Made by a program: the position numbers and the translations under genes. The notes below the pieces were generated by a model. The model did not search any database, had not been told where the DNA came from, and saw only the letters and a program-made list of their open reading frames with translations. From a virus, in the IMG/VR virus record IMGVR_UViG_3300045988_118370, positions 81,863 through 145,862 of that record: a stretch of 64,000 bases of DNA. One strand, written 5' to 3'. This document shows positions 430-47,220 of the stretch, piece by piece (positions within the stretch are counted from its first letter, which is position 1; each line of letters opens with the position of its first letter).

Positions 430-430
430 A

Positions 431-34084: not shown

Positions 34085-34230
34085 AAAATTTGCTAAACCT
34101 ATAATTATTTCGAAATTCCGCCCGGAGCGTCAGTGATCGGGCGGTCCATTATACCACATTTTCCGATCGGTGTCAATAGGCAAAATACACAAAAAAAATC
34201 AGCAGGTTTTAGCCAACCTGCTGATTGAAT
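34085..34230. promoter_or_regulatory. cassette copy 0 (GC hairpin, minus-strand consensus promoter, bidirectional terminator; plus promoter weak)
   Basis: Hairpin ccgcccggagcgtcagtgatcgggcgg. Revcomp promoter CCTATTGACACCGATCGGAAAATGTGGTATAATGG. Terminator aatcagcaggttttagccaacctgctgatt. Confidence 0.6.
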
Positions 34231-34232
34231 AT

Positions 34233-34649
34233 TTATGCAAGAAATGCGCTTACAATTTCATCGAAAACCGTGGGGTTAATGTCCACGTTAAAAAAGCGGT
34301 CATTCTTGCGGAACGCTTTGGGGTATCGTCTAATCAGTTCCGCACGCAACGCGCTTTCCGCACCCTCGGCGGGATAGTCCCCGCAAGAACGGATTCGATG
34401 AACTTCAACGCGCGTGATAGAATACTTTTTCGAGTATTCGCCGATTTCATCACGCAAGCGCCCTACAACGTCTTTTGCGGACGTGCCTACCTTGTTAAAT
34501 TCAAGTTTGTTGTTGTTGTAAAACTTGAAAAAGTAGACCGCTTGAACGTCTTTCAGATTCTCGCCACAATTAGGCATAAACTCCATTGAAACGGGTGGTC
34601 TACCGTCCTTAAATCGGCGTAGCTTAATAGTAATTTCTTCCATCGGCAC
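34233..34649 (-). CDS. GIY-YIG nuclease-domain protein (138 aa)
   Basis: AVYFFKFYNNNKLEFNKVGTSAKDVVGRL aligns with the I-TevI segment GIYQIKNTLNNKVYVGSAKDFEKRW. Conserved R, E and N follow. Confidence 0.6.
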   Translation of the reverse strand: MPMEEITIKLRRFKDGRPPVSMEFMPNCGENLKDVQAVYFFKFYNNNKLEFNKVGTSAKDVVGRLRDEIGEYSKKYSITRVEVHRIRSCGDYPAEGAESALRAELIRRYPKAFRKNDRFFNVDINPTVFDEIVSAFLA

Positions 34650-34766
34650 AAAATCCTCTCTATTGATTGAGGTTTACCATCGTTCTCTCAACCATTATTT
34701 TTTACCCTTTTTTGCTTGTTTTTGGGTGAAAAACCGCATTTTTCAGCGGTTTTTCACCCTTTTTCG

Positions 34767-35174
34767 TCAGTTTTTGGGCTTTCGCTTTTGAATCAGGGTC
34801 AATTCATAGTCATTTTCGCCCACATGGAACGCAATCATGCGCTCGACATTCGTAATTTCTACATTTTCGCACGCATTTTCGCTGTTTTCACGCAAAAAAG
34901 TCGCAAGTTCAGCGATAATCGAGCGTTTTGTGGGGTTTTCCTTGCGCTGTCGCTTCTCAAACTTATAAGCGGTCGGCGCTTTGCGTGTTCCGGTCTTAGA
35001 ATACTTGTTAGCTTCTTTCAGCTTTTCCGCGGACAGGTCAAAGTCCTTGGCGATTCCATGGTCAATGTCATCATCGTCCATGAGAATTTCTTTTGCTTCC
35101 TCGGCAGTACAATCCAACTTTTTCATCAGATTATCAATCTTTGCCTGAAAGTCCTTTTCACTCATTTTAGGCAT
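34767..35174 (-). CDS. hypothetical protein (135 aa)
   Basis: ORF. Confidence 0.5.
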   Translation of the reverse strand: MPKMSEKDFQAKIDNLMKKLDCTAEEAKEILMDDDDIDHGIAKDFDLSAEKLKEANKYSKTGTRKAPTAYKFEKRQRKENPTKRSIIAELATFLRENSENACENVEITNVERMIAFHVGENDYELTLIQKRKPKN

Positions 35175-35274
35175 TTCTTTTGCCCCCTTTCAAGTATGAT
35201 TATAACACCGCCGTCAGCAAATGTCAAGAGAAATTTTTGGGAGCGCCTAATTTTTTTTAGGCGCTCCCCCTGAA

Positions 35275-35652
35275 TCAGTGAGCGAGACGGAAGTAGGACT
35301 TGCGCTTGTCCACAATCTTCTCGACGCCGTTCGCTTCAATCATCTGACGCAGAAGAGCGGAAACGCGCTGGTTGGTGAGGTCGCCCAGACCGTCCACGTT
35401 CTTGATGAGGTCGGTCACGGTATACAGCTTGTCAGGATTCGCGGACAGCTCAGCGAAGATAATGTCCTTGTAGCCGTCGTTGGCAATCTGATTCGCGGTC
35501 GGCTTCTTATCTCCCGAGTTCTTACGAGCCAACAGGTCAATCTCGTGATTGATAAACTCAACCATAGCGGGGTCAGCCTGAACCTCGCTCATTTTGAGCA
35601 GAGCCTCGAAACGGTCGCGCTTGGTGAGCTTCTTAACAGTAGAAGTAGACAT
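35275..35652 (-). CDS. family-1 paralog (putative winged-helix protein, about 125 aa)
   Basis: Start at MSTSTVKKLTKRD with RBS AAAGGAATTGATACT. About 75 percent identical to 37898..38278. Confidence 0.6.
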   Translation of the reverse strand: MSTSTVKKLTKRDRFEALLKMSEVQADPAMVEFINHEIDLLARKNSGDKKPTANQIANDGYKDIIFAELSANPDKLYTVTDLIKNVDGLGDLTNQRVSALLRQMIEANGVEKIVDKRKSYFRLAH

Positions 35653-36184
35653 AGTATCAATTCCTTTCTTTGGCGGTAGGTCGCTACCCTTTTGATATAT
35701 TGAGTATACCACATTTTAGAGTGCTTGTCAAGAGGTTTCACAAACTTTTCACACGAATTACTACCCCGACCTGACGGATAATTTATTGTTTGTTGATTCA
35801 ATCTATTTGTCAGCGGAAAACCGCGTCAAGGATAGTTGGTTCAATCAAACTCACTTTCGCGTTCAACGTTTGGCTTTACAACGTGGTGTATTATGTTTTC
35901 TTCCTGTACTTTCTCAAGGTCGCGCGCCCTCGGATTTCTTGGGCTACTCCCTCTTGACATTTTCTATTGTAGCACACTCGCTGGGATTTGTCAAGAGGTT
36001 TTCAAGAAAAAACTCATGAATTTTTTCTTTTATCCCGTGCGTTCCGCTCCGAAGAGACCTTAACGTAATAGGTGAACGGTCTATTGCTACTTCCAACCGT
36101 AGCCCCACACCGACCTGTGGCTCAGGGGTTCCCCTCTTGACATTATCTATTATAACAGATTGCCCACGGATTACAATTGACAAA

Positions 36185-36380
36185 ATAACCAAATTACGGG
36201 AAAAAATTTTCTTTACTTTTGTGCAACTTTTCTCTTGACAAAATTGGCGGGGCGTGATATAATGGTGAATTCGGCCCGCTTTGGGCGTTGGCGGGCCGGC
36301 CATTTTATCATAAAAGTTCTTGTTTGTCAATAGACAAAATAGACAAAAAAAACTACCCATTTTTGGGCAGTTTTTTTATT
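36185..36380. promoter_or_regulatory. cassette copy 1 (plus promoter, GC hairpin, facing minus promoter, terminator)
   Basis: TTGACA at 36235-36240, 17-nt spacer, TATAAT at 36258-36263. Hairpin ggcccgctttgggcgttggcgggcc. Revcomp promoter TTGACAAACAAGAACTTTTATGATAAAAT. Terminator aactacccatttttgggcagttttttt. Confidence 0.65.
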
Positions 36381-36626
36381 TTAGTCCAGCAGGTTAATCT
36401 CACCGGGAATTTTGAAAGAATCAGCGTCCAGTGTGGAATTGTAGTCCTCGGTAAAAAGGTCAATCATTCCACATTCCATGATGTAATTCTGCACCGCCCG
36501 CTGAACATTTCTCCAAAGGTCAATCTTTCGGCTTTCCTCGCGGGCTTTTCTGGCTTCCTGTATCTGGATAATGAGTTCGTCCAGTTCCTCGTCGGTCATG
36601 TAATTCAAATCTAAATCCATTTTCAA
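36381..36626 (-). CDS. hypothetical protein (81 aa)
   Basis: ORF. Confidence 0.5.
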   Translation of the reverse strand: MKMDLDLNYMTDEELDELIIQIQEARKAREESRKIDLWRNVQRAVQNYIMECGMIDLFTEDYNSTLDADSFKIPGEINLLD

Positions 36627-36910
36627 AACTCCCCTTTAATTGCTTCTTTCCATGCATCCCAGCCGAATTTTTCCTCGCGGTCTAACTTCTTGCCAATGTC
36701 TTTTGCGGTCAGTAGGTCAAGCTCGTCCGCAATCTCATCTTCAAAGTTTACCCAAGAGTCGTAGGTCTGAATAATGAAAACTTCATCGGCTTCAAAGACG
36801 CCACCGCACTCGGCGCAGATAATATAGTCATGGTCGATTAAAATGCCCATGTGAGGGTCATTGTCATCAGGGACTACAAAAAGGACTTGTTTAGCGTTCA
36901 TGTGAAACAC
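36623..36910 (-). CDS. hypothetical protein (95 aa)
   Basis: ORF, coupled. Confidence 0.5.
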   Translation of the reverse strand: MFHMNAKQVLFVVPDDNDPHMGILIDHDYIICAECGGVFEADEVFIIQTYDSWVNFEDEIADELDLLTAKDIGKKLDREEKFGWDAWKEAIKGEF

Positions 36911-36978
36911 CTCTTTCGTTTGATGTATTGATTATACCATAGGGAATAGGACTTGTCAAGCCCTATTCCCTATTTTTT

Positions 36979-37755
36979 TTAGCTCATGTTTACAACGGGA
37001 TTTTCCTTAATGTTTCGCATGAGCGCGCGCTGAAACTCGGTAGGCTTGGGGCGTTCCGCCGTGGGAGTTTTGAAAAGGGACTTTTCCATGGTCTTATGCT
37101 GTCGGACGCAATAGCGCAGAATCTCAACTTCAATGAGAACATCTTCAAGTCCCGTGTGGGATTCATCAAAGCTGTCCTCACCGCTGATAAAGCGATAAAG
37201 AATTTCTGCGGTAAAGCGGAGCTGTCCGTTCTTGGTCTTGTAGCCGTTCTTTTCGCAATAGTCGCGGTAAGTGGGCATTTTGCCGATAACCTGTCGCGCC
37301 ATTTTCAACGTGTCCCAAATTTCGAGGTCGTAGGGAAAGAAATAGCGATACTTGCTTTTCGTGTCCCATCTTTGCGCGTTGTTGCAGGCGTTAAGGTCGA
37401 ACCGCATATTATGAGCACAGACAAAAGAGCAGTTGTAGCGCTCGACACATTCGCAGAACGCAAGACGAATTTCGTAAAGGTCAGCCATAATGCGCGAACC
37501 GTTCTTAATGTCCTCAATGTAGCGAGGAATCTTGTCGGCGTAGTAGGCAGACCGCATGAGGTCGCGTTCGTAGCAGAAAATGTCGCGATTCACAAAGGAA
37601 TGAGTTTCATAAACATTTCCCTTGGAATCAATGACCGCCCAGCCGAAGTCGTAGGGAAGCACATTTGACATATCCAGCTTATCGCCATCCTGAATGGTGT
37701 TTGCGGTTTCCGTGTCCAGCATAATGCCGTAGTTTTTGCGCCTATCAATACCCAT
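36979..37755 (-). CDS. DnaQ-like (DEDD) 3'-5' exonuclease
   Basis: Exo I MLDTETAN, Exo II CAHNMRFDLN, Exo III HTGLEDV. Confidence 0.75.
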   Translation of the reverse strand: MGIDRRKNYGIMLDTETANTIQDGDKLDMSNVLPYDFGWAVIDSKGNVYETHSFVNRDIFCYERDLMRSAYYADKIPRYIEDIKNGSRIMADLYEIRLAFCECVERYNCSFVCAHNMRFDLNACNNAQRWDTKSKYRYFFPYDLEIWDTLKMARQVIGKMPTYRDYCEKNGYKTKNGQLRFTAEILYRFISGEDSFDESHTGLEDVLIEVEILRYCVRQHKTMEKSLFKTPTAERPKPTEFQRALMRNIKENPVVNMS

Positions 37756-37897
37756 CTTATCGTCTCCTATTGGAAAAGTAGATTGAGGTTTACCATCGTT
37801 CTCTCAACCTCTGATAATAGTATAGCACTTTGCTATTGGTTTGTCAACAGTTTTTTTTGTAGGGCAGGGGATTTTTTTATCCCCTGCCCTTTTCCCT

Positions 37898-38278
37898 TTA
37901 CGCGAGGGAGAAGTAGGACTTGCGCTTGTCAACCGTCTTGACAACGGTGTTGGCCTCAATCATCTGACGCAGAAGAGCGGAAACGCGCTGATTGGAGTAG
38001 TCCGCAAGCTCGGGAACGCCCTTGATGAGGTCGGTCACGGTATACAGCTTGTCAGGGTTTGCGGTCATCTCGTCCAGAATGACCTGCTTCACAGTGTCAT
38101 TCTCCATCTGCTTGGCCGTGGGCTTCTTGTCGCCCGCGTTCTTCTTGGCGAGCAGTTCAATCTCATGCTCGATGAACGCCACCATGTCAGGATTTGCCTG
38201 AACCTCGCTCATTTTGAGCAGAGCCTCGAAACGGTCGCGCTTGGTGAGCTTCTTAGTGGTAGAAGTAGAAGTAGCCAT
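37898..38278 (-). CDS. family-1 paralog (putative winged-helix protein, 126 aa)
   Basis: MATSTSTTKKLTKRDRFEALLKMSEVQ... with the same RBS as 35275..35652. Confidence 0.6.
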   Translation of the reverse strand: MATSTSTTKKLTKRDRFEALLKMSEVQANPDMVAFIEHEIELLAKKNAGDKKPTAKQMENDTVKQVILDEMTANPDKLYTVTDLIKGVPELADYSNQRVSALLRQMIEANTVVKTVDKRKSYFSLA

Positions 38279-38729
38279 AGTATCAATTCCTTTCTGGTTT
38301 TTAAGACTGTCCTTGTCTTTGATGTAGTTATTATACCATAAGCGGAGCAGGTTGTCAATAGTTTTTGCAAATTTTTTTTAGGGGCGGTCGCGAGGTTTAT
38401 TACTATACATCTTGTTTATACCTACCTTTATCTATACTCATAAACCAATTCATTTTACTAAACCAAATTAGTCTTTAAGGCGGTGGGCGAGCATTAGAAG
38501 TCATCTTGTTTTTACCTCTCTCATTTGATGTATTCATTATACCCTACGTAGAACGGTTTGTCAAGGGGTTTTTCAAACTTTTTTTGAAAGTTTGTTCGGC
38601 ACGCCACGCTTGGAACATTCCGTCGGATTTTGGTATAATGAATGGTCAAGGGAACTGCCTTTCCGAAGGTCTTACTCTTTCCTCCTGACATTATGTAGTA
38701 TAGCAGATTGGTAATGATTTGTCTATTGG

Positions 38730-38930
38730 TAAAATAGCTAAATAACGGGAAAAAATAAAATTGAAATTTGTGCGAAATTTCTCTTGACAAAAATGCTGGC
38801 AGGGTGTATAATGGTAAATTCCGGCCGTAGCGCGCGGAAACGGCCGGCCCATTATATCACATTCAAGGAATTTTGTCAATGGTCAAAGTAAACAAAAAAA
38901 TCTCCCCATTTTTGGGGAGATTTTCTTTTA
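38730..38930. promoter_or_regulatory. cassette copy 2
   Basis: TTGACA 38784-38789, 17-nt spacer, TATAAT 38807-38812. Hairpin ccggccgtagcgcgcggaaacggccgg. Revcomp promoter TTGACAAAATTCCTTGAATGTGATATAAT. Terminator tctccccatttttggggaga. Confidence 0.7.
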
Positions 38931-39185
38931 GCCAATCACACTGACTTCGGTTCTGACAGGCGTTACCATCTTGTCGCGCGAGAACTCGCGAACCTGACCT
39001 GTTTCAAGATTCACCGCGTAGCAATACTGCGAACCTCTCGACCGGACAAACGGCGTGTTGTTGTTGCTGTCAATTTTGAGATACATTCCCATACCGCTAC
39101 CGTTAGAGCGCAGAGTGGTGAACGTGCCACCGCTGAGAATGTTGATAATTTGGAGCTGACCCTTAGTGCCAAAATTTACTTTCAT
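38928..39185 (-). CDS. hypothetical protein (85 aa)
   Basis: ORF ending at the cassette terminator. Confidence 0.5.
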   Translation of the reverse strand: MKVNFGTKGQLQIINILSGGTFTTLRSNGSGMGMYLKIDSNNNTPFVRSRGSQYCYAVNLETGQVREFSRDKMVTPVRTEVSVIG

Positions 39186-39201
39186 TTTTATTTCTCCTCT
39201 C

Positions 39202-39345: not shown

Positions 39346-39350
39346 TTTTA

Positions 39351-39584: not shown

Positions 39585-39611
39585 TTATTATACCATTGGA
39601 GTAGGGTTTTG

Positions 39612-40112
39612 TCAAGCCCTTTTCTCCAAAAGTTCCGAAAGTTTTTCGATAATGTTTACTGCGGTTGGGTCAATGGTTTCACCCAAGTGCCAACCATTCC
39701 GAACCTTTTCATTATCGTCAACCAAGATGGACACGTCATAGCGGTCGCGCACGCTGTCGGCCTTAGTCGCGCCATATTGGACGCCGTGGAAGTGGTCATA
39801 GTGGAAGCCCTGTTCTTCAAGCCACGCGCGCTTTGCTTCACGCACGAGGTTTTTGTATTCCTCGCTCGAATCTTTGGAAAGCCAAGTGATGATGTTGATT
39901 TCCCAGCCCTCGGCGCGGAGAAGTTCGCAAACCTCATTCAATTCAGCCATATCACACATGGGAACGGCAGTCCGATAGGGCTTAGGATTTTCCGAACGGA
40001 GAAGTGCAAGCCAATCCTTGACGCCGTAGAGGTCAGCAATAGTGCCGTCCATGTCAAAGTTGATGGAACGTCGAGTGGCCACAACGTGGGACTTGATGTA
40101 AGTGATTTTCAT
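39612..40112 (-). CDS. HAD-superfamily 5'(3')-deoxyribonucleotidase-like phosphatase
   Basis: Motif I FDMDGTIADL of DxDxT type. Later conserved K and LVDDN. Confidence 0.7.
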   Translation of the reverse strand: MKITYIKSHVVATRRSINFDMDGTIADLYGVKDWLALLRSENPKPYRTAVPMCDMAELNEVCELLRAEGWEINIITWLSKDSSEEYKNLVREAKRAWLEEQGFHYDHFHGVQYGATKADSVRDRYDVSILVDDNEKVRNGWHLGETIDPTAVNIIEKLSELLEKRA

Positions 40113-40180
40113 AGGTATTACCCCTTTCCTTTACTGTATCTGTATTATACCATACATCTGCGCGGTTGTCAAGAGAAATT

Positions 40181-40558: not shown

Positions 40559-40702
40559 TCAATACACGAAAGATAAGAAATTAAGCAAAATCAGCACAGG
40601 AATAGCGTAGACGATATTGAAAGAGTCCCACCCGAGACTTTCACAGGAATAGGCAAAAATAAAGCCAAAAACGAGGCCGAAAATGCCGATTAAAATAATC
40701 AT
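40559..40702 (-). CDS. small membrane protein (about 47 aa)
   Basis: Internal ATG with RBS AGAGGATTTAGA. ATGA overlap with the upstream stop. Confidence 0.4.
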   Translation of the reverse strand: MIILIGIFGLVFGFIFAYSCESLGWDSFNIVYAIPVLILLNFLSFVY

Positions 40703-40962
40703 TCTAAATCCTCTATATGACCGTAGTGTTCGTTGATATGCCATTCAAGATAGGTATTAGTCGCAATCTGAATTTCTCTATCTAACCAGTCGTAAAAGTC
40801 CTCGGGGTCGCGGGCCATGCGTTCGTCAATAATATCAGCAAGAGAAACGCGATGGGCGATAAACTCTGAAATATCAAGAGAATCCATAGAAGAAAGAAGT
40901 TCTTCTACACATTCTCCGCGAGTAGAGAACTTTTCAGTAGAAAAATCGTGAGTGTAATACAT
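40699..40962 (-). CDS. hypothetical protein (87 aa)
   Basis: ORF. Confidence 0.5.
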   Translation of the reverse strand: MYYTHDFSTEKFSTRGECVEELLSSMDSLDISEFIAHRVSLADIIDERMARDPEDFYDWLDREIQIATNTYLEWHINEHYGHIEDLE

Positions 40963-41039
40963 TGTTTGTATCCCCTTTCTTTACTGTATCCATAGTATAG
41001 CAGATTATTACATTCTTGTCTATTGGTAAAATACCCAAA

Positions 41040-41230
41040 TTCGGGAAAATAATTAGTTGGACTTTTGGCTAAATTTCCTATTGATAAATTGCTGAGATGG
41101 TGGTATAATGGAAATTCCGGCCGTGGCATGCGCAAACGGCCGGCCATTTTATCACACTATTGGATTTTTGTCAATAGGCAAAATAAATAAAATTTTGAGA
41201 CGAGATTTGGTTATCTCGTCTCAAAATATT
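41040..41230. promoter_or_regulatory. cassette copy 3
   Basis: TTGATA-N17-TATAAT (41080-41109). Hairpin ccggccgtggcatgcgcaaacggccgg. Revcomp promoter TTGACAAAAATCCAATAGTGTGATAAAAT. Terminator tttgagacgagatttggttatctcgtctcaaa. Confidence 0.65.
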
Positions 41231-41231
41231 T

Positions 41232-41684
41232 TTAACGTTCGGACACAATGCTGAGGTAGCGGACAATCATGTCCATTTCGCAACCCATGTCCTGCTGGTC
41301 GCAAACCGCATAACCCACAAGGTCGCCGTCCGCACAAATCGGGTAAACGCCATAAGTGTTATTGAAAACAAACGGCTTTCTTTTAAAATCCCACTGGGTC
41401 GAAACATAAGGCGGAAAGTTTTCCATACCCCGCAGTTTCACGGTAGTATCATAGATTGCGATGGGACGCAAACCGGAATTTGATGCCATTGTAATAGCGG
41501 TTCGCAGAGCTTCTTCGGTCAAAGAGCCAAGCACCGAATACCTCTGAAAACAAACGCAGTTGTCTTCTCCAAGGAAGATTTCAAGCGGGTCTCCCTCGCG
41601 AATCTTCAAAGTTCGGCGAATCTCTTTCGGAATGACCACACGTCCAAGGTCATCAATTCTGCGGATAATACCAGTAGCTTTCAT
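41232..41684 (-). CDS. SpoVT/AbrB-family transcriptional regulator-like protein
   Basis: N-terminus MKATGIIRRIDDLGRVVIPKEIRRTLKIREGDPLEIF resembles the AbrB swapped-hairpin domain MKSTGIVRKVDELGRVVIPIELRRTLGIAEKDALEIY. About 100-aa C-terminal domain, 150 aa total. Confidence 0.75.
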   Translation of the reverse strand: MKATGIIRRIDDLGRVVIPKEIRRTLKIREGDPLEIFLGEDNCVCFQRYSVLGSLTEEALRTAITMASNSGLRPIAIYDTTVKLRGMENFPPYVSTQWDFKRKPFVFNNTYGVYPICADGDLVGYAVCDQQDMGCEMDMIVRYLSIVSER

Positions 41685-41748
41685 TTTAATTTTCCCCTTT
41701 CACTTGATACGTTAAGTATAGCAGAACAAAAGGCTTTTGTCAAGCCCT

Positions 41749-42231
41749 TTATTCAAGATTTTTGCTTTCCGCGACAAAATATTTTGCTTCGTATTGATTG
41801 GCAATAGCCTTGACTTTTGCGCTTTCCTTTTGAGTTGCGCAGTAAAAATTGAAAAGCGTATGTTTATCGCTCAATTCAATGTAAGAGTGTGGAACATCAT
41901 GCAAATCAAAGTCAATGGTATTAGTGTATTTTGTCGGGACAGTTAGCTCGACTTTCCATAACCGGTCTTTGCGGGCTTTCTCTTCAATCCACTTGACAAA
42001 GTAAACGCCCACAAAATTACAAACAGCAGTAATAGCCATTTTTAACCAGATAGGCATACCGTCCGCGGAAGTCAGCACAATCACATAGGAATAAAATCCA
42101 TATGTGATGGCATTGATAAGAGAAGCACTAAACTTCCCGCCGTTGACAGTCAAGATGCTTTTGATAGTTGACAGAATCACATTCACCGCCGTGCAAAGCG
42201 CGAACAGAAGAATTGTATTCATTATTATCAC
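41749..42231 (-). CDS. membrane protein (160 aa)
   Basis: Several TM helices at the N-terminus. Confidence 0.5.
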   Translation of the reverse strand: MIIMNTILLFALCTAVNVILSTIKSILTVNGGKFSASLINAITYGFYSYVIVLTSADGMPIWLKMAITAVCNFVGVYFVKWIEEKARKDRLWKVELTVPTKYTNTIDFDLHDVPHSYIELSDKHTLFNFYCATQKESAKVKAIANQYEAKYFVAESKNLE

Positions 42232-42295
42232 CCTTTCCTTTTTCTATTATAATAATATCATATTATAATAGAAATGTCAATAGAGAGTTTTTAAT

Positions 42296-42454
42296 TTACT
42301 CTTTTAATTTTTCTAATAGGTCATCAGCACATTCATAGCTGATACTTCTGCGGTCGCACTCGTTGGACAAAGGACAACAAGCGCAGTCATTAAAGGTTTC
42401 CGTCCAAACGCGCAACCAGTCAATCAAACGCAAAGTGTTAACTTCCTCATACAT
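42296..42454 (-). CDS. small Cys-rich protein (52 aa)
   Basis: RBS GGAGAGTGATAACA before the ATG. MYEEVNTLRLIDWLRVWTETFNDCACCPLSNECD.... TAA stop. Confidence 0.35.
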   Translation of the reverse strand: MYEEVNTLRLIDWLRVWTETFNDCACCPLSNECDRRSISYECADDLLEKLKE

Positions 42455-42791
42455 TGTTATCACTCTCCTTTACTCGGACAAAAAAGACCTTGTTATAGAT
42501 TTTATTTGCTTTAAGGTCAATCCAAAAATACACGTTTCCGCATACTCGATAGATTTTACAAGTCTCTCCGCTAACCTTTTTAACTTCCTCAAACTTCTCT
42601 TGCGTGGTGGGGTGGAAAACCGTCAGTTTGAGAAATATGCAATAGAAAGCCAAAGGAACAAAGCCGATAATCAGAGCAATCCATGCGAGAACGTCAGTTA
42701 AGGTATTTTCCCATTCGCACCATTCATCGGTGATTGTAGCGAACGCAATACCCACGCAAAACGCGAGAATCAACCAATACCATGCCCCCAT
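42447..42791 (-). CDS. membrane protein (114 aa)
   Basis: Three TM helices. Confidence 0.5.
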   Translation of the reverse strand: MGAWYWLILAFCVGIAFATITDEWCEWENTLTDVLAWIALIIGFVPLAFYCIFLKLTVFHPTTQEKFEEVKKVSGETCKIYRVCGNVYFWIDLKANKIYNKVFFVRVKESDNNV

Positions 42792-42859
42792 TATTTTATT
42801 CCCCCTTTATTTGTTGTATACATCTTACCACATTATAGGATTTTTGTCTATTGGCATTT

Positions 42860-43015
42860 TACACAAAAATTCGTGCGAAAATTTGTTGAACTTACCTCTT
42901 GACAAAAAACTCGGCGCGCCACAATCGTCCGCGCGCCGACAATTTTATCACATTCAAGGAACTTTGTCAATAGTCAAAGTAAACAAAAAAAATCACCCAA
43001 TTTGGGTGATTTTTC
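42860..43015. promoter_or_regulatory. cassette copy 4 (plus-strand -35 present, -10 replaced by the hairpin)
   Basis: TTGACA 42899-42904, then hairpin cggcgcgccacaatcgtccgcgcgccg. Revcomp promoter TTGACAAAGTTCCTTGAATGTGATAAAAT. Terminator aaatcacccaatttgggtgattt. Confidence 0.6.
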
Positions 43016-43017
43016 AT

Positions 43018-43209: not shown

Positions 43210-43306
43210 TCAATTTATTTTTTGGAAAGGGTGGCGGTTGTTTCAGGCACAACCGCCAAAGCCATAGGAAAGGGGGAGAAAAAACACGAACAAAAGTTCG
43301 GTTTTG

Positions 43307-43555
43307 TCAAGGGATAATCAGTTCCGCGTCATAGACAGGCCGAACCATGCAGGGCGCGCCAAAGCAGTCGAGATTGTAAGTGTCTAAATTGAGAGCGTTC
43401 CATTCTTCTGCACCGGTATCTTCATCAACCACAGTCGCGATTTTGATGTAATAGACGTTTCCAGAAGCAGGGTCTTGAAAAATCATACCCTCGGGGAGGT
43501 CTTCAAATGCAACCATTTTGTTGCTATGCTTAACAGTAATTTTCATTTCGTTCAC
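43307..43555 (-). CDS. hypothetical protein (82 aa)
   Basis: ORF. Confidence 0.5.
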   Translation of the reverse strand: MNEMKITVKHSNKMVAFEDLPEGMIFQDPASGNVYYIKIATVVDEDTGAEEWNALNLDTYNLDCFGAPCMVRPVYDAELIIP

Positions 43556-43908
43556 CCTTTATAATAGTATTTGTAAGCCCATTCAATGATTTCATGGCTT
43601 GTGGTAGTCCATTCCTCTTTGGGACTATCGAACTTTTCCGCATACTTTTTGATGTAGTTATTATACTCCATGCGCGCGGTGTCGTATGCTCCAATAGCCA
43701 CAATTAAAGCGTGTTTCGCTTCTTCGGCGTCGGAGACTGCTTTCTTGCGGTCGGGGCAGTCAGGATAAAGGTTAATCACCCCTACGCGCGTAATGGCTTG
43801 CCTTGTCTTTTCATAAAGGCGGTCGCGCTCTTCCCAAACCTTATAAAGCATTTCGTCTGTGTGATTCTCATAGGGATTGAATTTCTTTTCTTTTTTCTTA
43901 CCGAACAT
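43552..43908 (-). CDS. hypothetical basic protein (about 118 aa)
   Basis: Internal ATG (MFGKKKEKKFNPYEN...). The longer track ORF overlaps the upstream gene in another frame. Confidence 0.4.
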   Translation of the reverse strand: MFGKKKEKKFNPYENHTDEMLYKVWEERDRLYEKTRQAITRVGVINLYPDCPDRKKAVSDAEEAKHALIVAIGAYDTARMEYNNYIKKYAEKFDSPKEEWTTTSHEIIEWAYKYYYKG

Positions 43909-44236
43909 TTTTCTTTTTCTCCTTTTCCTGTTTATTCCACATTCTATCGAAGAACGCATTTGCGAGGACACGCTTGTAAAGGTTGTCAGGCATGGGGCGC
44001 TCACCGTGCTTGTTTCTCCATATCGCGGTGATTTTATCAATATCCGCGATATAGGCGGTAATGAGTGTGCCATCGGAAGCGCTACGAACGAGAAGAACGC
44101 CGGTTGTAGTGATAGTGTAGAGAATATCGTTCTCAACGCTGTCGATATATGGTTCGCCGATTCCTACATTATCGTAGATGAAGAGCAGACGGTCAATGCG
44201 GTCTTGCGTGGCGTGTTTTGACATTTTGATAAGCAT
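43898..44236 (-). CDS. hypothetical protein (about 112 aa)
   Basis: Internal ATG MLIKMSKH with RBS GAAAGAGGTAAAACAA. Confidence 0.4.
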   Translation of the reverse strand: MLIKMSKHATQDRIDRLLFIYDNVGIGEPYIDSVENDILYTITTTGVLLVRSASDGTLITAYIADIDKITAIWRNKHGERPMPDNLYKRVLANAFFDRMWNKQEKEKKKNVR

Positions 44237-44308
44237 TTGTTTTACCTCTTTCTTTTCCTCTTGGATTGATTGTATTATACCATATGGGGAGGGGCTTGTC
44301 AAGCCCCT

Positions 44309-44458
44309 TTAATATAATTGTTCCCCATCGTGGTAGCGCTCATATTCCGCTTCAAGGAAGTCGAGAATAGTTTCAAAGTCGTCTGCATCTGCGGGGTCTG
44401 CAAAGACCTTTTCAAGGACTTCGTTAGTGTGTCTGTTGTAAACTCGAATCATATCCAT
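44309..44458 (-). CDS. small acidic protein (49 aa)
   Basis: RBS GAAAGAGGTAAGTAAA before the ATG. MDMIRVYNRHTNEVLEKVFADPADADDF.... TAA stop. Confidence 0.35.
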   Translation of the reverse strand: MDMIRVYNRHTNEVLEKVFADPADADDFETILDFLEAEYERYHDGEQLY

Positions 44459-44527
44459 TTTACTTACCTCTTTCTTGATTGTATATGTATTATATCATGC
44501 GAAAGGGCTTTTGTCAAGCCCTTTTTA

Positions 44528-44734
44528 TCAGAAATGATAATTTCTGATGATGGCGTCGAACTTGGGAGCATATACGTTTTCCCACTGTTCTTCAAGAGTC
44601 TGGTCATTCGTGCGATATAATTCCCACGAGACTGCGCCATAAGCGTTATGCTTGAAAAACTCGGCGTCGCAGGGCATCTGCTCGGCATAGAGAAGCTGGG
44701 TCTTGATAAAAGAGTGAATGTTGTAGTTAGTCAT
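44528..44734 (-). CDS. hypothetical protein (about 68 aa)
   Basis: Internal ATG MTNYNIHSF with RBS GAGGT. Confidence 0.4.
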   Translation of the reverse strand: MTNYNIHSFIKTQLLYAEQMPCDAEFFKHNAYGAVSWELYRTNDQTLEEQWENVYAPKFDAIIRNYHF

Positions 44735-44819
44735 TTTATTTACCTCATCTTTCCGTTCCCCTTGGAACAATTATAGTATAGCAAATGCTTAGGCATTTGT
44801 CTATTGACGGATCACACAA

Positions 44820-45140
44820 AATTGGGAAAAATAATTTGTGCAAATTTTCGCAACTTTTTGCTTGACAAATTGCTGGCCCTGTGATATAATGGAAATTCCG
44901 GGCGCGTGGGCCGTGCGCGCCCGGCCGAACAACCATTGTTAAAATTTTAACAAAAATGAAATAGAAAGGGCGCGGTAATTATCGGCTACCGCGCAAACCA
45001 TAGTATGAAAAATTTGTTTACTACTTCAAGAGGCTTACCATTTCCTCTTGACATGATTATAATACCACAACGGGGCGAGTTTGTCAATAGTTTTTTGAAA
45101 AAAAATTTCAGGCGAGATAATTAAATCTCGCCTGAAAATT
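44820..45140. promoter_or_regulatory. cassette copy 5 (extended, carries a second 8-bp-stem hairpin)
   Basis: TTGACA 44862-44867, 17-nt spacer, TATAAT 44885-44890. Hairpin ccgggcgcgtgggccgtgcgcgcccgg. Extra hairpin gcgcggtaattatcggctaccgcgc. Revcomp promoter TTGACAAACTCGCCCCGTTGTGGTATTAT. Terminator tttcaggcgagataattaaatctcgcctgaaa. Confidence 0.65.
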
Positions 45141-45366
45141 ATACGTCCCACATGGCTTCCGCAATCCAGAAGTATTCATAGCGGAGTTTGGACTGAATCG
45201 CAAACAAGGCGTTCGCAAGTTCTCCGCCGTCTTTGTAGTCTTCCGCGTCTGAAAATTTCTGACTTTCTTTCGCAATTCTTTGAGCCAACTTTTCAAGGGC
45301 GTCTGCCTGTTCTCTCAAAGCCTGCGGGATAGGTTTTTCATTCATTATTTGTTTCCCCCTTTGCAA
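45139..45366 (-). CDS. hypothetical protein (75 aa)
   Basis: ORF. Confidence 0.5.
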   Translation of the reverse strand: MQRGKQIMNEKPIPQALREQADALEKLAQRIAKESQKFSDAEDYKDGGELANALFAIQSKLRYEYFWIAEAMWDV

Positions 45367-45694
45367 AGTTAGAGGTTAGCTCTAACGTATGTCCGCATTC
45401 ATCGCAATACCAATAGTAATAAACTGTTCCATACCGGCCATGAGAAGCATTTACAAATTTCATTTCATTTCCGCAGATGGAGCAATAGCCGTCATTCCAT
45501 GCTTTTTTGTCGGCATTGTGGTCAGCGACTACTGCGCCCGTCATGCCATAGCCAAGAGCGCACGAAATGAGAAGACCAACCAACAGTCTGACTACTGGGT
45601 GAGACTTTTCCATGTTGCACCAACAGACAAGGCAGACAAATAGCGCAAGGACTGCGCTAAAAATTCCGCCAACAATTAAAAATTCCGTTCCCAT
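45338..45694 (-). CDS. membrane protein with C-terminal zinc-ribbon (118 aa)
   Basis: Two TM helices, then CSICGN...YWYCDECGH. Confidence 0.5.
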   Translation of the reverse strand: MGTEFLIVGGIFSAVLALFVCLVCWCNMEKSHPVVRLLVGLLISCALGYGMTGAVVADHNADKKAWNDGYCSICGNEMKFVNASHGRYGTVYYYWYCDECGHTLELTSNFAKGETNNE

Positions 45695-45846
45695 TTTTAT
45701 TTCCCCTTTTCACATTTAATGCATTGAGCGTGTGTTCCGCACTTTCCATCGCAATAAGGACATTCCATTATTTTATTCCCCTTTCCTTTGATACATTAAG
45801 TATAGCAGAAAAAGGGCTTTTTGTCAAGCCCTTTTTCTTATTTTTT

Positions 45847-46209
45847 TTAATTTTCTTTTCTAATGGAATAGTAGGTTCGGCTTCCCTTTTTGGTGTAGGT
45901 CAACTTTTTGTCAATCCAACAAAGATGACCGCAATACCATGCAACGGTGGCGCAAGGATATTCTTTGCCTGTCTCACGGTAAAGAATAAACTGGATTTCC
46001 GTAGGGCACAGGGGCTTTTCCGCCTTTGAGAGAACGTCGAGCATCATGTTTTTCATCATGGTGTTGCGGATTTCCTGTTTCAGTTTCCGCGCTTCCTGAG
46101 CTTCCTCGAATTTCTGGCAAGCCCGTTCCGCCTGAAACACGTCCATTCCGGTGAAAGTGCCATCATCAAGGCATTTTCTCAAAAGACTATAAACTTCAAA
46201 GTTCATCAT
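45847..46209 (-). CDS. hypothetical protein (120 aa)
   Basis: ORF. Confidence 0.5.
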   Translation of the reverse strand: MMNFEVYSLLRKCLDDGTFTGMDVFQAERACQKFEEAQEARKLKQEIRNTMMKNMMLDVLSKAEKPLCPTEIQFILYRETGKEYPCATVAWYCGHLCWIDKKLTYTKKGSRTYYSIRKEN

Positions 46210-46312
46210 GTTAGCATTTCCCTTTCCTTTATTGTGCTTTTATTATAGCATCTGCTTTTGAATTTGTCAAGAAGTTTTTTGGAAAAAAGAGGGAAAAATT
46301 TTCCCTCTTTAT

Positions 46313-46585
46313 TTATCCCCAATAGATCGAAAGAACGTTGTCAATGTAGCTGGCTTTATAGCCATAATTCTGCATAATATCTTTGCAAGCCTGCCTGACG
46401 CCCTTGTCATTTAATGAAGCAAGAGAACACTCGTAAAGTGTTTCTCCCGTTCCTGCCACACGCTCAATTTCCGGCATGATGTGGTCTCCGATAAACGCAC
46501 GCGCGAGGGCATTATTTTTAGCTTGGATTTCTTTGCGGACTTCTTCGGCTTTGCGCGTCATTTCATAAGCATATTTAATTTCCAT
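46313..46585 (-). CDS. hypothetical protein (90 aa)
   Basis: ORF. Confidence 0.5.
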   Translation of the reverse strand: MEIKYAYEMTRKAEEVRKEIQAKNNALARAFIGDHIMPEIERVAGTGETLYECSLASLNDKGVRQACKDIMQNYGYKASYIDNVLSIYWG

Positions 46586-46660
46586 GGTGTTTCTCCCTTT
46601 CCTTTGATGCTTTTATTATAGCATAGAGGGCTTGTTTTGTCAAGCCCTCTATTTAATTTT

Positions 46661-46969
46661 TTAGCAATAGGCCAGATTCCCGCGCGCCCAGCCATATACG
46701 CTGATTTGATTGCACGCCTTGCCGATTTCAAGTGCCTGCTTCTTGGTCTGCACTCTCTTGGACTTGTCAACATAATAGATGCCGTTCGCAAGCCACACAC
46801 CGCAGTTTCCGCCGAAGTCCTTGACCGCATTGATAGCTTCGCGGGCGGTCTTACACTCAACGCCGTTGGTAGCGACCTGCCAGCCGGACTTGTAGTTGAC
46901 TTTCTTGCCATATTTGAGAGTCATGCCGTCGTTTTCAGCGAGTTTGAGAATAGAACGAATGTTAATCAT
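46661..46969 (-). CDS. hypothetical protein (102 aa)
   Basis: ORF. The alternative-frame ORF 46558..46911 is rejected. Confidence 0.5.
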   Translation of the reverse strand: MINIRSILKLAENDGMTLKYGKKVNYKSGWQVATNGVECKTAREAINAVKDFGGNCGVWLANGIYYVDKSKRVQTKKQALEIGKACNQISVYGWARGNLAYC

Positions 46970-47059
46970 GTTGTAAATCCCTTTCCGGTTTGGTAGGTTT
47001 TCCTTCCCTTACTGTGATTATAGTATAGCACCGATTCGGGATTCTGTCTATTGACACTT

Positions 47060-47220
47060 TGCACAAAAATTTGCCCCAAAAATTTGTTGAATCTGCCTAT
47101 TGACAAAAACTCGGCGCGCCAGGTCCGTTCGCGCGCCGGCCGATTATACCACAAAATTTTGAAATTGTCAATAGGTAAAATGCACAAAAAAATCTTCCCA
47201 TTTTTGGGGAGATTTTCATT
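47060..47220. promoter_or_regulatory. cassette copy 6
   Basis: TTGACA 47099-47104, then hairpin cggcgcgccaggtccgttcgcgcgccg. Revcomp promoter TTGACAATTTCAAAATTTTGTGGTATAAT. Terminator tcttcccatttttggggaga. Confidence 0.65.

Follow-up and report, generated by a model that had tools for sequence, protein, structure and literature searches.

A control cassette recurs through the early-gene region of an uncultured gut phage of ~195 kb. The 64,000-nucleotide stretch analysed here (the window) contains seven copies of it, at 34.1, 36.3, 38.8, 41.1, 42.9, 45.0 and 47.1 kb and in one shared orientation. The order of elements is a minus-strand promoter (P2), an A/T-rich core, a plus-strand promoter (P+), a hairpin, a second minus-strand promoter (P1) and a bidirectional terminator (T1), promoters and terminators being consensus predictions throughout. 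Six of the seven cassettes were recovered by an nhmmer model of the core at E≤1e-19. The cassette is a quasi-palindrome, and the same model also matched its own reverse strand (E 5e-6 to 4e-4). Successive hairpin starts are 2154, 2549, 2296, 1795, 1986 and 2214 bp apart. The features are, in window coordinates:

33,996–34,022 (+): extra solo hairpin h0, 27 nt, CGGCCCG..CGGGCCG; GGAAACT before; no promoter on either side in this strain
34,100–34,105 (+): copy 1, remnant P+ −10 TATAAT; poor −35 TTTTCG, 18-nt spacer
34,118–34,144 (+): copy 1, hairpin CCGCCCG..CGGGCGG
34,148–34,176 (−): copy 1, P1 TTGACA-N17-TATAAT; −10 3 nt from hairpin
34,197–34,226 (both strands): copy 1, T1; also ends gene 34,233–34,649 (−)
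36,149–36,176 (−): copy 2, P2 TTGTAA-N16-TATAAT
36,193–36,226 (no strand): copy 2, core, divergent promoter region, ATTACGGGAAAA ... TTTGTGCAA
36,235–36,263 (+): copy 2, P+ TTGACA-N17-TATAAT with TG extension
36,272–36,298 (+): copy 2, hairpin CGGCCCG..CGGGCCG; predicted P+ RNA ~36,269–36,378
36,302–36,330 (−): copy 2, P1 TTGACA-N17-TAAAAT
36,346–36,377 (both strands): copy 2, T1
38,697–38,725 (−): copy 3, P2 TAGACA-N17-TATACT
38,742–38,775 (no strand): copy 3, core, ATAACGGGAAAA ... TTTGTGCGA
38,784–38,812 (+): copy 3, P+ TTGACA-N17-TATAAT
38,821–38,847 (+): copy 3, hairpin CCGGCCG..CGGCCGG; predicted P+ RNA ~38,817–38,926
38,851–38,879 (−): copy 3, P1 TTGACA-N17-TATAAT
38,894–38,927 (both strands): copy 3, T1; ends gene 38,928–39,185 (−)
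40,994–41,022 (−): copy 4, predicted P2 TAGACA-N17-TATACT, for gene 40,699–40,962 (−)
41,038–41,049 (no strand): copy 4, core motif AATTCGGGAAAA
41,081–41,109 (+): copy 4, P+ TTGATA-N17-TATAAT; TTGACA in other strains
41,117–41,143 (+): copy 4, hairpin; predicted P+ RNA ~41,113–41,232
41,146–41,174 (−): copy 4, P1 TTGACA-N17-TAAAAT
41,192–41,227 (both strands): copy 4, T1; ends AbrB/MazE-like gene 41,232–41,684 (−)
42,822–42,850 (−): copy 5, predicted P2 TAGACA-N17-TAAGAT, for gene 42,447–42,791 (−)
42,899–42,904 (+): copy 5, orphan −35 TTGACA, no −10 (type B), 7 nt from hairpin
42,912–42,938 (+): copy 5, hairpin; on the minus strand followed by AGUUUUUUGUCAA, terminator-like
42,942–42,970 (−): copy 5, P1 TTGACA-N17-TAAAAT
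42,987–43,015 (both strands): copy 5, T1
44,775–44,803 (−): copy 6, predicted P2 TAGACA-N17-TATACT, for gene 44,528–44,734 (−)
44,862–44,890 (+): copy 6, P+ TTGACA-N17-TATAAT
44,898–44,924 (+): copy 6, hairpin
44,925–45,058 (no strand): copy 6, insertion with its own hairpin (44,970–44,994); absent from strain L010
45,059–45,087 (−): copy 6, displaced P1 TTGACA-N17-TATTAT
45,106–45,137 (both strands): copy 6, T1
47,022–47,050 (−): copy 7, predicted P2 TAGACA-N17-TATACT, for gene 46,661–46,969 (−)
47,100–47,105 (+): copy 7, orphan −35 TTGACA, no −10 (type B)
47,112–47,138 (+): copy 7, hairpin; on the minus strand followed by AGUUUUUGUCAA
47,143–47,171 (−): copy 7, P1 TTGACA-N17-TATAAT
47,189–47,216 (both strands): copy 7, T1
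50,677–50,703 (+): ninth hairpin, at the upstream edge of the early region, CGGCTCG..CGAGCCG in the 27-nt frame of the others; AAAATT before

The initial annotation, which had described seven cassettes of one orientation, was right about their positions, but hairpins of this geometry number nine, with extra ones at 33,996–34,022 and 50,677–50,703. The perfect G/C hairpin that it reported is present in each copy, 27 nt long in all and built as 7+13+7. Pure-G/C hairpins with a 7-bp stem occur in the 64 kb only in the seven cassettes and at 33,996, and none was found in 50 shuffles. All nine hairpins point one way with respect to the genes, and their sequences differ.

The A/T-rich element (aaattcgggaaaa...tttgtgc) is real, and is conserved far beyond the present phage. 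The stretch to the right of the hairpin had also been read correctly, as a minus-strand promoter with an A-tract (P1, TTGACA-N17-TATAAT or TAAAAT) followed by the bidirectional terminator. The proposed plus-strand TTGACA-N17-TATAAT promoter is complete in copies 2, 3, 4 and 6 only. Replacement of the −10 by the hairpin had been assigned to copies 4 and 6; it is copies 5 and 7 that retain the −35 of P+ and miss both spacer and −10, and copy 1 has a TATAAT, 12 nt from the hairpin, with no usable −35. Two features had been overlooked: P2, a third promoter (TAGACA-N17-TATACT type) that copies 2–7 carry to the left of the A/T element, and the 134-nt insertion that separates hairpin and P1 in copy 6. 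The 18-kb cassette region contains 92 promoter-like sites, versus 32 expected; strong plus-strand promoters number only four there, and each adjoins a hairpin.

The product of P+ should be a small RNA of ~60–120 nt (~110 nt here) with strong hairpins at both ends. In predicted folds, the 5′ hairpin (−16 to −22 kcal/mol) is joined to the terminator by an open linker rich in A and U. The antisense reach of this RNA is shorter than the initial annotation supposed. Because the P1 −10 lies only 2–4 nt from the hairpin, the plus RNA would overlap P1 transcripts by only ~25 nt, not the operon leader proper, and its predicted overlap with P2 transcripts is zero.

Comparison of 14 strains sharing 80–98% identity revealed that the P+ hexamers of copy 3 are invariant, with variable P1 and P2 spacers and hairpin loop; in related strains the P1 hexamers are kept too, against varying spacers and loops. 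Judged by sequence comparison, the plus-strand promoter is real. Orthologous stems carry compensated changes (e.g. CCGGCCG/CGGCCGG to CCGGTCG/CGACCGG). Of the cells compared, 97.8% were paired; 55 changes were double and none affected one side only. The only non-Watson-Crick pairs among 553 stem pairs were one G-T and two A-C. That stem positions change on both arms together points to selection for intra-strand pairing, and the near-absence of G-T and A-C pairs fits a need for both strands to fold. Given these compensated changes, the hairpin is no ordinary double-stranded target of the wHTH or AbrB proteins that had been suggested to bind it.

Stems are perfect in all window copies, including the three with incomplete P+ and the two solo hairpins without a promoter. 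All of these five likewise show compensated stem changes between strains. Hairpins lacking a plus promoter are found at 33,996, 42,912, 47,112 and 50,677, and also at L006 4263 and L026 9734. Their persistence where P+ is missing suggests a role, or a maintenance mechanism such as gene conversion, beyond capping of the P+ RNA.

Better documented, by strain comparison, is the part played by cassettes as joints for deletion, insertion and gene conversion, most simply because they are repeated. Hairpins were exchanged between copies among strains, and L020 4206 is a hybrid of copies 6 and 4. Some strains have one hairpin in place of the 33,996 and 34,118 pair; L012, L016, L017, L018 and L020 carry a direct fusion of the 33,996 hairpin to copy 1 P1. 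Like these joints, the architecture of the cassette and its conservation are established by comparison.

Viral, genome and metagenome collections were scanned with a pattern that demanded TATAAT and 6–9 nt to the hairpin and left three stem pairs free. There were 355 matches, 322 with fully paired stems (~91%, versus ~3% by chance), which represent 230 distinct units, with members in phage contigs from gut and other metagenomes. TTGACA or TTGACT at 17 bp, which the pattern did not demand, precedes 201 of the 230 (most have TTGACA); 168 have the TG extension, and in 226 the gap from −10 to hairpin is 7–8 nt. A strong downstream terminator was found in at least 128 of 225 units, with a bidirectional shape in 120 of those. 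In line with the earlier remark that the element resembles none described, Rfam and GenBank phages gave no match to the promoter-hairpin unit. An alignment of 45 representatives (<80% mutual identity) contains a conserved P2, TGCACAAA-TTTCGGGAAAA-...-TTTTTGTGCAAA and P+. P+, near-consensus in the 230 units, is the best-conserved part of the cassette.

By a crude ORF call, the nearest ORF runs opposite to the unit in 22 of 30 cases on the left and 22 of 32 on the right, and most family units appear to be antisense to their flanking genes. Same-strand ORF neighbours that were inspected resembled shadow ORFs. P1 is present in 79 units and absent from 125 of the 230, and many P1-less units run through a short linker into their own terminator, ending at about +60 to +90. 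The conserved core would consist of a back-to-back promoter pair (P2/P+) and a hairpin-capped antisense mini-transcript of ~60–120 nt. The antisense small RNA family envisaged in the initial annotation gains partial support here, from the recurring order of promoter, 27-nt hairpin and terminator. The collision switch fares less well: promoter competition would suit the facing arrangement of P+ and P1 seen in this phage, but with P1 absent from most family members, collision with P1 cannot be the core function. Overall, the observation of the initial annotation was confirmed in part, and comparison lends its interpretation partial support.

We favour, tentatively (probability about 45%), a composite module that would punctuate the leftward early operons of a distant SPO1-like (Herelleviridae-like) phage, act in antisense and double as a recombination joint; that RNA is made, and what it does, is our inference. 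The core would be a back-to-back pair of host sigma-A promoters. P2 would fire leftward into the next early gene or genes, and P+, of near-perfect consensus (TTGACA, 17 bp, TGnTATAAT, GG discriminator), rightward against the genes, starting 2–3 nt before the hairpin and stopping at the bidirectional T1, where the upstream operon ends as well. Action would be local, through the P+ RNA or through its synthesis. The 3′ hairpin of this RNA would by construction be complementary to the hairpin that terminates the early mRNA from upstream. In the clade of this phage, the first ~25 nt would also be complementary to P1 transcripts at their 5′ end; with P1 and P+ start sites only ~25 bp apart, polymerase at one should keep polymerase off the other. 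The 5′ hairpin may shield the RNA from 5′ decay, and the same palindrome on the sense strand (hairpin, then A-R-U-U-U) may serve as a second, weak terminator behind T1. Together, these effects would insulate every operon that P2 drives from the one upstream and possibly time early-mRNA decay. As joint and punctuation module the cassette can be likened to the PeSL cassettes of T4-type phages, and a precedent comes from phage K, in whose early terminal-repeat region small RNAs were detected (PMC9241854). The antisense part has its limits, for the complementarity to P1 transcripts is remote from every ribosome-binding site and P2 bypasses it, and complementarity to the upstream terminator is an automatic result of compaction and need not have a function.

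The hairpin could instead act primarily on the sense strand, where it would either serve the early operons as a reserve intrinsic terminator or attenuator (T2) or stabilise P1 transcripts at their 5′ end; P+ would then be a secondary mirror promoter, kept for the U-rich tail that it supplies or for its help to P2. We consider this unlikely. It would explain why all nine hairpins face the genes in one way and continue as A-R-U-U-U(U), why the sense strand of type B copies reads AGUUUUUGUCAA, and why hairpins persist without P+; a scan tool called both window 50,704–50,676 (−), at the ninth hairpin, and L006 2418–2392 (−) terminators, and at L006 4263 a canonical terminator is followed after 32 nt by the hairpin, without an intervening promoter. 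However, a near-consensus P+ at a fixed 7–8 nt from the hairpin in a family of 230 units is hard to regard as a by-product. The U-tract of type A copies has only 3 U, loops of 9–13 nt are long for intrinsic terminators, T1 just upstream is already strong, and the P1 start should sit inside the stem, so that P1 transcripts would carry only part of the hairpin.

An improbable alternative is that the 5′ hairpin tags the nascent P+ RNA for recognition by a protein, like nut/boxB or put. An early phage protein would make polymerase ignore T1, and antisense promoters every ~2.2 kb would back-transcribe and silence the early operons late in the early phase (“anti-early” RNA). A strong constitutive promoter with a terminator within 100 nt is the layout of antitermination-controlled units such as lambda PR′/Q and N/nut, the hairpin spacings tile the early region, and fixed hairpin size, conserved stem frame and semi-conserved loop would suit a protein site. 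Against this, no candidate antiterminator was found among the early proteins, which gave no informative family matches, nor was a boxA-like element seen; further plus-strand terminator-like sites lie inside the operons of the window, and the promoter-less hairpins are left unaccounted for.

We give as little credence to an element working as DNA, with the RNA incidental: the palindrome might be a site for recombination or for a mobile element, or might, with the promoter, G/C block and A/T-rich stretch, belong to replication origins primed by transcription. Strain differences that end at cassettes and hairpins, the movement of hairpins between copies, near-perfect Watson-Crick stems almost free of G-T, as in DNA palindromes kept by template switching, and an intact promoter in some copies only would all agree with it. 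Yet plain homology between repeats suffices for the recombination seen, and a hairpin at fixed spacing behind a consensus −10 suggests a feature of the transcript. Moreover, the 104 window ORFs include no transposase, HUH or Y1 enzyme or integrase, a 13-nt palindrome centre disfavours cruciform extrusion, and an R-loop primer is hard to reconcile with a terminator so close behind the promoter. Least probable are abundant, very stable decoys or sponges acting in trans on a host RNA-binding enzyme, an RNA-sensing defence or RNases: many copies per genome on maximal-strength promoters, with a 5′-terminal hairpin and end protection as the only conserved RNA features and the remainder free to vary, would suit them, but constant antisense placement, terminator sharing and P2 partnership are not accounted for, hairpins that differ among the nine copies of one genome argue against mimicry of one RNA, and there are no CRISPR-repeat handles.

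The favoured module does not account for some hairpin features: the strictly constant 27-nt size, the conserved stem frame C-S-G-N-N-C-G, the semi-conserved loop (C11 G12 .. C15 G16 T17), and orphan −35 boxes kept 5–7 nt from hairpins.

The initial annotation had placed seven copies of a cassette, all in the same orientation, at about 34.1, 36.3, 38.8, 41.1, 42.9, 45.0 and 47.1 kb (copies 1 to 7), and this was borne out: a profile of six copies scored each of them with E<=1e-19. When the whole window was searched for pure-G/C stems of 7 bp with loops of 3-14 nt, exactly eight sites were returned, the seven cassettes and a solo hairpin at 33,996, left of copy 1. These eight hairpins share one 27-nt frame, and 50 shuffles gave none. 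A ninth hairpin (50,677-50,703) contains one A/T pair and has the same 27-nt frame.

Parts of the cassette, from left to right on the plus strand
Part 1, minus strand: P2, a promoter of the TAGACA-N17-TATACT type
Part 2: ACACAAA, then (A/T)TTCGGGAAAA, then AAATTTGTGC
Part 3, plus strand: P+, a TTGACA-N17-TATAAT promoter
Part 4: 7-8 nt with AAATT at the end
Part 5: the 27-nt hairpin, then 2-4 nt
Part 6, minus strand: P1, TTGACA-N17-TATAAT/TAAAAT, with an A-tract upstream
Part 7: T1, a bidirectional terminator that doubles as the end of the upstream gene

The four parts distinguished earlier (an A/T-rich element, a plus-strand promoter, the hairpin, and a facing promoter with its terminator) are real, since all of them are present in this read-out, but several details were wrong or missing. 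The minus-strand promoter P2 had been overlooked, and it is copies 5 and 7, not copies 4 and 6 as annotated, whose P+ lacks a -10. In copies 5 and 7 (type B, as opposed to the type A copies in which the hairpin follows a P+ with a -10) a clean gap of ~25 nt puts TTGACAAAAACT beside the hairpin. A usable -35 is absent from copy 1, and copy 6 carries a 134-nt insertion ahead of P1. The A/T-rich core between P2 and P+ reads TTTCGGGAAAA / TTTGTGCA; P1, P2 and T1 were found in every copy (P2 being listed for copies 2-7).

Read on both strands, the cassette proved to be nearly palindromic: every full copy is hit by the core profile on the opposite strand as well, P+ and P1 mirror one another as versions of a single promoter type with the hairpin at the centre, and an upstream element, TTTGTG(C/T)...CTnTTGACAA, is common to P+, P1 and P2. 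P+ and P1 have their -10 hexamers at a distance of 36-38 bp (consensus pairs in copies 2, 3 and 4). By the usual 7-nt rule the two start sites would lie ~25 bp from each other, that of P+ 2-3 nt before the stem and that of P1 within the right arm. Two open complexes could not occupy P+ and P1 at once, and the two RNAs would overlap across the hairpin only.

The cassettes belong to an uncultured phage of ~193-197 kb that has been repeatedly assembled in human gut metagenomes. Its DNA and proteins have almost no similarity to sequenced phages, and no DNA match, close or distant, was found in GenBank phages. It is linked to the Herelleviridae through remote protein matches only, and its ATPase is 42-43% identical to Herelleviridae ATPases (Enterococcus EF24C, Bastille-like Bacillus phages). 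Thirteen tRNA genes are clustered on the minus strand at 357-6982. Outside the early region, two window ORFs match PHROG 5767 'sigma factor' (best E 3e-35), which suggests an SPO1-like phage sigma factor cascade; such a match was absent from the ten early-region proteins tested.

Between 33.7 and 50.7 kb the window has the typical make-up of an early or host-takeover block: small minus-strand ORFs with nearly no family matches and with strong Gram-positive ribosome-binding sites. It contains 92 sigma-A-type promoter-like sites versus 32 expected, the strong ones being nearly all on the minus strand. G+C content is 0.40-0.45 between 34001 and 50000, versus 0.29-0.40 in the remaining window. Family matches of the early proteins were uninformative except for two: an AbrB/MazE-type DNA-binding protein (41232-41684, minus strand, E 7e-10), the 3' end of whose gene adjoins the terminator of copy 4, and a PNKP-phosphatase-like protein (39612-40112, minus strand), a weak match (E 2.5e-4) below the Pfam cut-off. 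A segmental duplication of ~2.55 kb (35252-35551 versus 37872-38171, and 36176-36310 versus 38725-38859; 70-73% DNA identity) spans copies 2 and 3 together with paralogous 125/126-aa genes (35275-35652 and 37898-38278).

The same block holds a second composite class, in which the -35 TTGACA of a minus-strand early promoter sits inside the loop or arm of the preceding terminator hairpin, as in AAAAGGGCTTGACAAAAAGCCCTTTT.

Sites of the second composite class
39586-39623, minus strand, promoter
41714-41751, minus strand, promoter
44273-44310, minus strand, promoter
44488-44525, minus strand, promoter
45798-45838, minus strand, promoter
46614-46652, minus strand, promoter
48948-48972, minus strand, promoter

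Relatives were collected by a protein-anchored search, which gave 13 strains at 95-97% amino acid identity, one at 90%, a clade at 63% and others at 44-55%. The orthologs of copy 3 were aligned with no motif constraint. In this alignment the P+ hexamers do not vary and the P+ spacer hardly does; much variation is seen in the P1 and P2 spacers and in the inner 13 nt of the hairpin. The sole stem difference is compensated (CCGGCCG/CGGCCGG versus CCGGTCG/CGACCGG). A second ortholog count agrees, the hexamer invariance there being partly imposed by the anchors used. Cassette type is stable at orthologous sites, copies 5 and 7 being without a -10 in all strains. Judged by this conservation, P+ is under selection as a promoter, and pairing in the hairpin is under selection or is maintained in some other way; the predicted elements also give the unit a terminator and an antisense position.

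Three public collections were scanned with a pattern consisting of TATAAT, 1-4 nt, RAWTTC and the fixed positions of the hairpin frame, three stem pairs being left unconstrained.

Matches to the promoter-hairpin pattern
Viral collection: 96 stretches, 111 matches, 110 with perfect stems
Genome collection: 44 stretches, perfect stems in most (~3/4 of the matches listed)
Metagenome collection: at least 120 stretches, several labelled human gut
All matches: 355, of which 322 fully paired (chance ~1 in 32)
Distinct units: 230
Distinct hairpins: 154, or 163 with contig-edge units kept

In the genome collection the perfect-stem matches lie on phage-like contigs, mostly binned with Clostridia (Oscillospiraceae, Acutalibacteraceae, Lachnospiraceae), and the remainder are apparent chance matches in unrelated bacteria. 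Several features not demanded by the pattern recur among the 230 distinct units: TTGACA or TTGACT is found 17 bp upstream in 201 of them and a TG extension in 168. The gap to the hairpin is 7-8 nt in 226 units, where the pattern permits 6-9 nt. A strong terminator follows in at least 128 of 225 units, with the bidirectional shape in 120 of those. By a crude ORF call, the nearest ORF is on the opposite strand in 22 of 30 cases on the left and 22 of 32 on the right; the same-strand calls inspected were reverse complements of opposite-strand genes, and the units are mostly antisense, between genes of the other strand. The feature is thus real, non-random and far more widespread than the window shows: contigs of uncultured phages from gut and other metagenomes carry hundreds of copies. 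Neither chance nor recent duplication alone can account for it, given the shuffles and the conservation over more than 200 diverged units.

The facing promoter is less general. The initial annotation had proposed a small RNA made from face-to-face promoters, antisense to the leader of the leftward operon; this was partly right, the overlap being limited to the ~25-nt hairpin and P1 being present in 79 of 230 units and absent from 151. An orphan -35-like box was seen in 26 units and neither box nor P1 in 125, many of which run through a short A-rich linker into their own terminator. Units with P1 have predicted RNA ends at about +110; in those that lack it the ends fall at about +60 to +90. When 45 representatives with less than 80% mutual identity were aligned, the entire left half was conserved, in the order: ribosome-binding site and P2 (other strand), TGCACAAA, TTTCGGGAAAA, ~15 nt, TTTTTGTGCAAA, CTcTTGACAAA, tGTGGTATAATGG, AAATTC, hairpin. 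Given this conserved left half and the presence of P1 in a minority, the conserved core is, as predicted from the alignment, a back-to-back promoter pair with a hairpin-capped antisense mini-transcription unit, and the face-to-face P1 is an addition in this clade and some others. Relatives at 55% identity have a convergent consensus promoter pair around a G/C hairpin of another size. In L027 (11235-11327) and L028 (11262-11347), which are such relatives, the pair, with -10 hexamers 28-35 bp apart and a different hairpin geometry, is located at the edge of the early region, inverted relative to a 258-aa marker gene. The P+/hairpin module was not found in positions 1-12,000 of phage K or 95,000-142,072 of EF24C, and no metatranscriptome-like contig starting at the predicted start site was recognised among the metagenome matches.

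The hairpins follow the frame C-S-G-N-N-C-G ... C-G-N-N-C-S-G, and 541 of 553 stem pairs are Watson-Crick, with one G-T and two A-C. At the free stem positions, 55 double changes and no one-sided change were counted; for this covariation table, as for the profile of 230 units, the sequences were preselected for pairing, and the unbiased evidence for pairing is the copy 3 ortholog alignment together with the 322 fully paired matches out of 355. The near-absence of G-T pairs would be expected if folding is required of both strands, or if the palindrome is preserved at the DNA level. An earlier suggestion, that the hairpin is a plain double-stranded DNA site for a regulator protein, was rejected, as the free stem positions always change on both arms together. 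No covariation was found for extra loop pairing (11-16, 10-17, 12-15), and the loop motif C11 G12 .. C15 G16 T17 is just a bias in sequence. A small ORF in the plus RNA was dismissed: an ATG occurs only in copy 3 of this strain (CAATGG), the other copies and strains having CAATAG.

When large lytic phages infect Gram-positive bacteria, they gain control of the cell through small early operons that are packed into a dense block. To our knowledge, how such operons are insulated, timed and shut off is poorly understood, SPO1 included. We read the cassette, tentatively (probability about 0.45), as a local antisense and insulator device. P+ would make a 60-120-nt RNA which, from the predicted folds, would be protected at both ends; a strong stem-loop within ~3 nt of the 5' end is known to block 5'-end-dependent decay. 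The 3' hairpin of this RNA would be complementary to the terminator hairpin of the upstream early mRNA; in this phage the first 25 nt of the RNA would also be complementary to the beginning of P1 transcripts, and P+ and P1 would be mutually exclusive. Read in the sense direction, the palindrome with the A-R-U-U-U(U) that trails it could form a second, weaker terminator, best in copies 5 and 7 and at 50,677. Operons driven by P2 would thereby be insulated from their upstream neighbour, and the level or lifetime of early transcripts could be set. The plus RNA was rejected as a cover for a translation start or control site: the gene is 150-200 nt further, P2 lies between, and the overlap is ~25 nt.

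If this RNA is made, it would define a new and easily searchable family of phage small RNAs, recognised by a consensus promoter, 7-8 nt and a 27-nt G/C hairpin. The cassette is a compact and strongly conserved part of the early control layer, with back-to-back promoters, a putative capped antisense mini-transcript and common terminators, and it offers a direct handle for tests of antisense or insulator control of early genes. It could also supply parts for synthetic biology in Firmicutes (a maximal promoter, a 5' stabiliser, bidirectional terminators).

One rival explanation makes the sense-strand terminator the main role of the hairpin. The sense-strand stem is worth -13 to -19 kcal/mol, and 5-6 U follow it at 50,677 and in the type B copies; type A copies have only 3 U, after AA, and the loop of 9-13 nt falls outside the 3-8 range of the terminator tool. 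Orphan -35 boxes are kept beside hairpins on either side, and hairpins are perfect, with compensated changes, even where there is no promoter. Such promoterless hairpins would either have a role on the sense strand or at the DNA level, or be restored often by gene conversion from copies that function.

Another possibility is a nut/put-like site where antitermination would drive anti-early transcription. The order promoter-hairpin-terminator is compatible with a site of this type, but no antiterminator factor was identified. Because the size is strict, the stem frame conserved and the loop biased, recognition by a protein is suggested by these sequences. We consider it improbable that the fixed 27-nt 5' hairpin is a protein tag, bound either by a phage antiterminator, so that the tiled antisense promoters would run back in an 'anti-early' shut-off, or as a decoy by a host RNA-sensing, RNA-degrading or defence factor. 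If true, either version would amount to a novel type of phage RNA device, common among phages of gut and other metagenomes that are for the most part binned with Clostridia. A decoy RNA acting in trans was considered as an explanation in its own right. Finally, the hairpin may be a DNA-level origin or mobile site; for a mobile site, no transposase, HUH protein or integrase was found among the 104 window ORFs.

The cassette was compared with known systems. PeSL (promoter-early stem-loop) cassettes of T4-type phages are short repeated units that combine a stem-loop terminator with a strong early promoter of the host type (Arbiol et al. 2010, PMC2839356; Comeau et al. 2014, PMC4122927). In PeSLs the terminator and promoter are on the same strand (PMC2839356; PMC4122927), and PeSLs are end points of insertions, deletions and swaps between close relatives (PMC4122927). 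The antisense promoter, the +1 hairpin, the P2/P+ pair and the fixed 27-nt hairpin are not described for PeSLs (PMC2839356; PMC4122927). Like PeSLs, our cassettes join a strong sigma-70-type early promoter to a stem-loop terminator (P1, P2, T1) and lie, within a large genome of the myovirus type, in a hyperplastic region between small, mostly uncharacterised early genes, with seven copies in 13 kb of small ORFs almost devoid of family matches. The second class, with its -35 in the terminator loop, is closer still. By analogy, PeSLs are the closest known counterpart in behaviour, although there is no sequence relationship, the strand arrangement differs, and the lineage is Gram-negative T4-like there and a Clostridia-associated SPO1-like phage here.

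In IS10 (pIN/pOUT, RNA-OUT) and P22 (Pant/Psar, sar RNA), convergent promoters with starts a few tens of bp apart produce a short stable antisense RNA with a stem-loop at its start covering the overlap, and the overlap spans the ribosome-binding site of the target. Promoter competition and RNA pairing are likewise plausible here. In contrast, the ~25-nt overlap here is confined to the outermost 5' end, with over 150 nt separating it from the gene, and is bypassed by P2; most family members are without a facing promoter. Stabiliser stem-loops are also found at the 5' ends of Gram-positive mRNAs such as the ermC and aprE leaders, but those are single mRNA leaders, not repeated, of no fixed size and without antisense mini-transcripts.

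The early terminal-repeat region of Staphylococcus phage K encodes small non-coding RNAs with no assigned function (PMC9241854). The RNAs predicted here share with them an intergenic or antisense location within the early region, phage K being a member of the Herelleviridae and the present phage Herelleviridae-like, whereas the sole promoter-plus-hairpin found in phage K (6217) is on the sense strand and of another shape. RNA anti-CRISPRs (Racrs, solitary repeat units) are promoter-driven, intergenic small hairpin RNAs of phages that copy one CRISPR repeat sequence (PMC10651486). Such mimicry was rejected, as there are nine different hairpins in one genome, with loops of 9-13 nt and no repeat handles. 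In one subfamily of units, from three viral contigs (L032, L046, L062), the hairpin is followed by CCAAAATTGAAAC, containing the ATTGAAAC handle typical of type I-C CRISPR repeats; a ATTGAAAC-like handle occurs in 3 of 225 units, which is chance level, and the resemblance was judged to be due to chance. A REP/RAYT or IS200/IS605 element was dismissed for want of an HUH/Y1 transposase or integrase among the 104 window ORFs (Pfam, PHROGs), and the perfect-stem matches of the genome collection are short phage-like contigs in MAG bins, not chromosomal arrays.

Rfam at the gathering score returned only tRNAs in the window, and a permissive search of 33.5-51.2 kb only sub-threshold, terminator-like chance matches. 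The family was not found in Rfam or among sequenced phage isolates (GenBank phages). The view that the architecture corresponds to no described element thus held: the antisense hairpin-RNA unit matches nothing described in Rfam, GenBank phages or the literature searched.

Comparison between strains shows, from their aligned sequences, that the cassettes are recombination joints. One strain (L020) has a hybrid cassette in which the left flank comes from copy 6 and the remainder, hairpin and right flank, from copy 4, with loss of the intervening ~3.8 kb; in the same strain a copy-3-type hairpin occupies the copy 2 site. Five strains have one hairpin in place of the pair at 33,996 and 34,118, and the copy 6 insertion is absent from another (L010). 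In the clade at 63% identity the early region is much shorter, with shuffled gene order and strongly different gene content. The cassettes are therefore end points of indels and swaps between close relatives, as are PeSLs, and the concept of repeated regulatory cassettes that drive modular gene shuffling is thereby carried over from T4-type phages to a quite different lineage.

Two further observations concern the surroundings of the cassettes. At ~50821-50950 the leftward early genes diverge from rightward genes; this site carries another ATTTCGGGAAAA motif (50821-50832) and two occurrences of a direct repeat, 'aaatcaattttcaatttcaaa.tacga', and may be a boundary, origin or terminal feature. 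After P2 of copies 2 and 3, no ORF is present over ~130-150 nt until the next promoter (35990-36142 and 38566-38690, both minus strand). The second stretch is unstructured (z -0.09). The first, with a folding energy of -49.8 kcal/mol (z -2.65) and a terminator-like hairpin at its end, may for this reason be a sense-strand small RNA.
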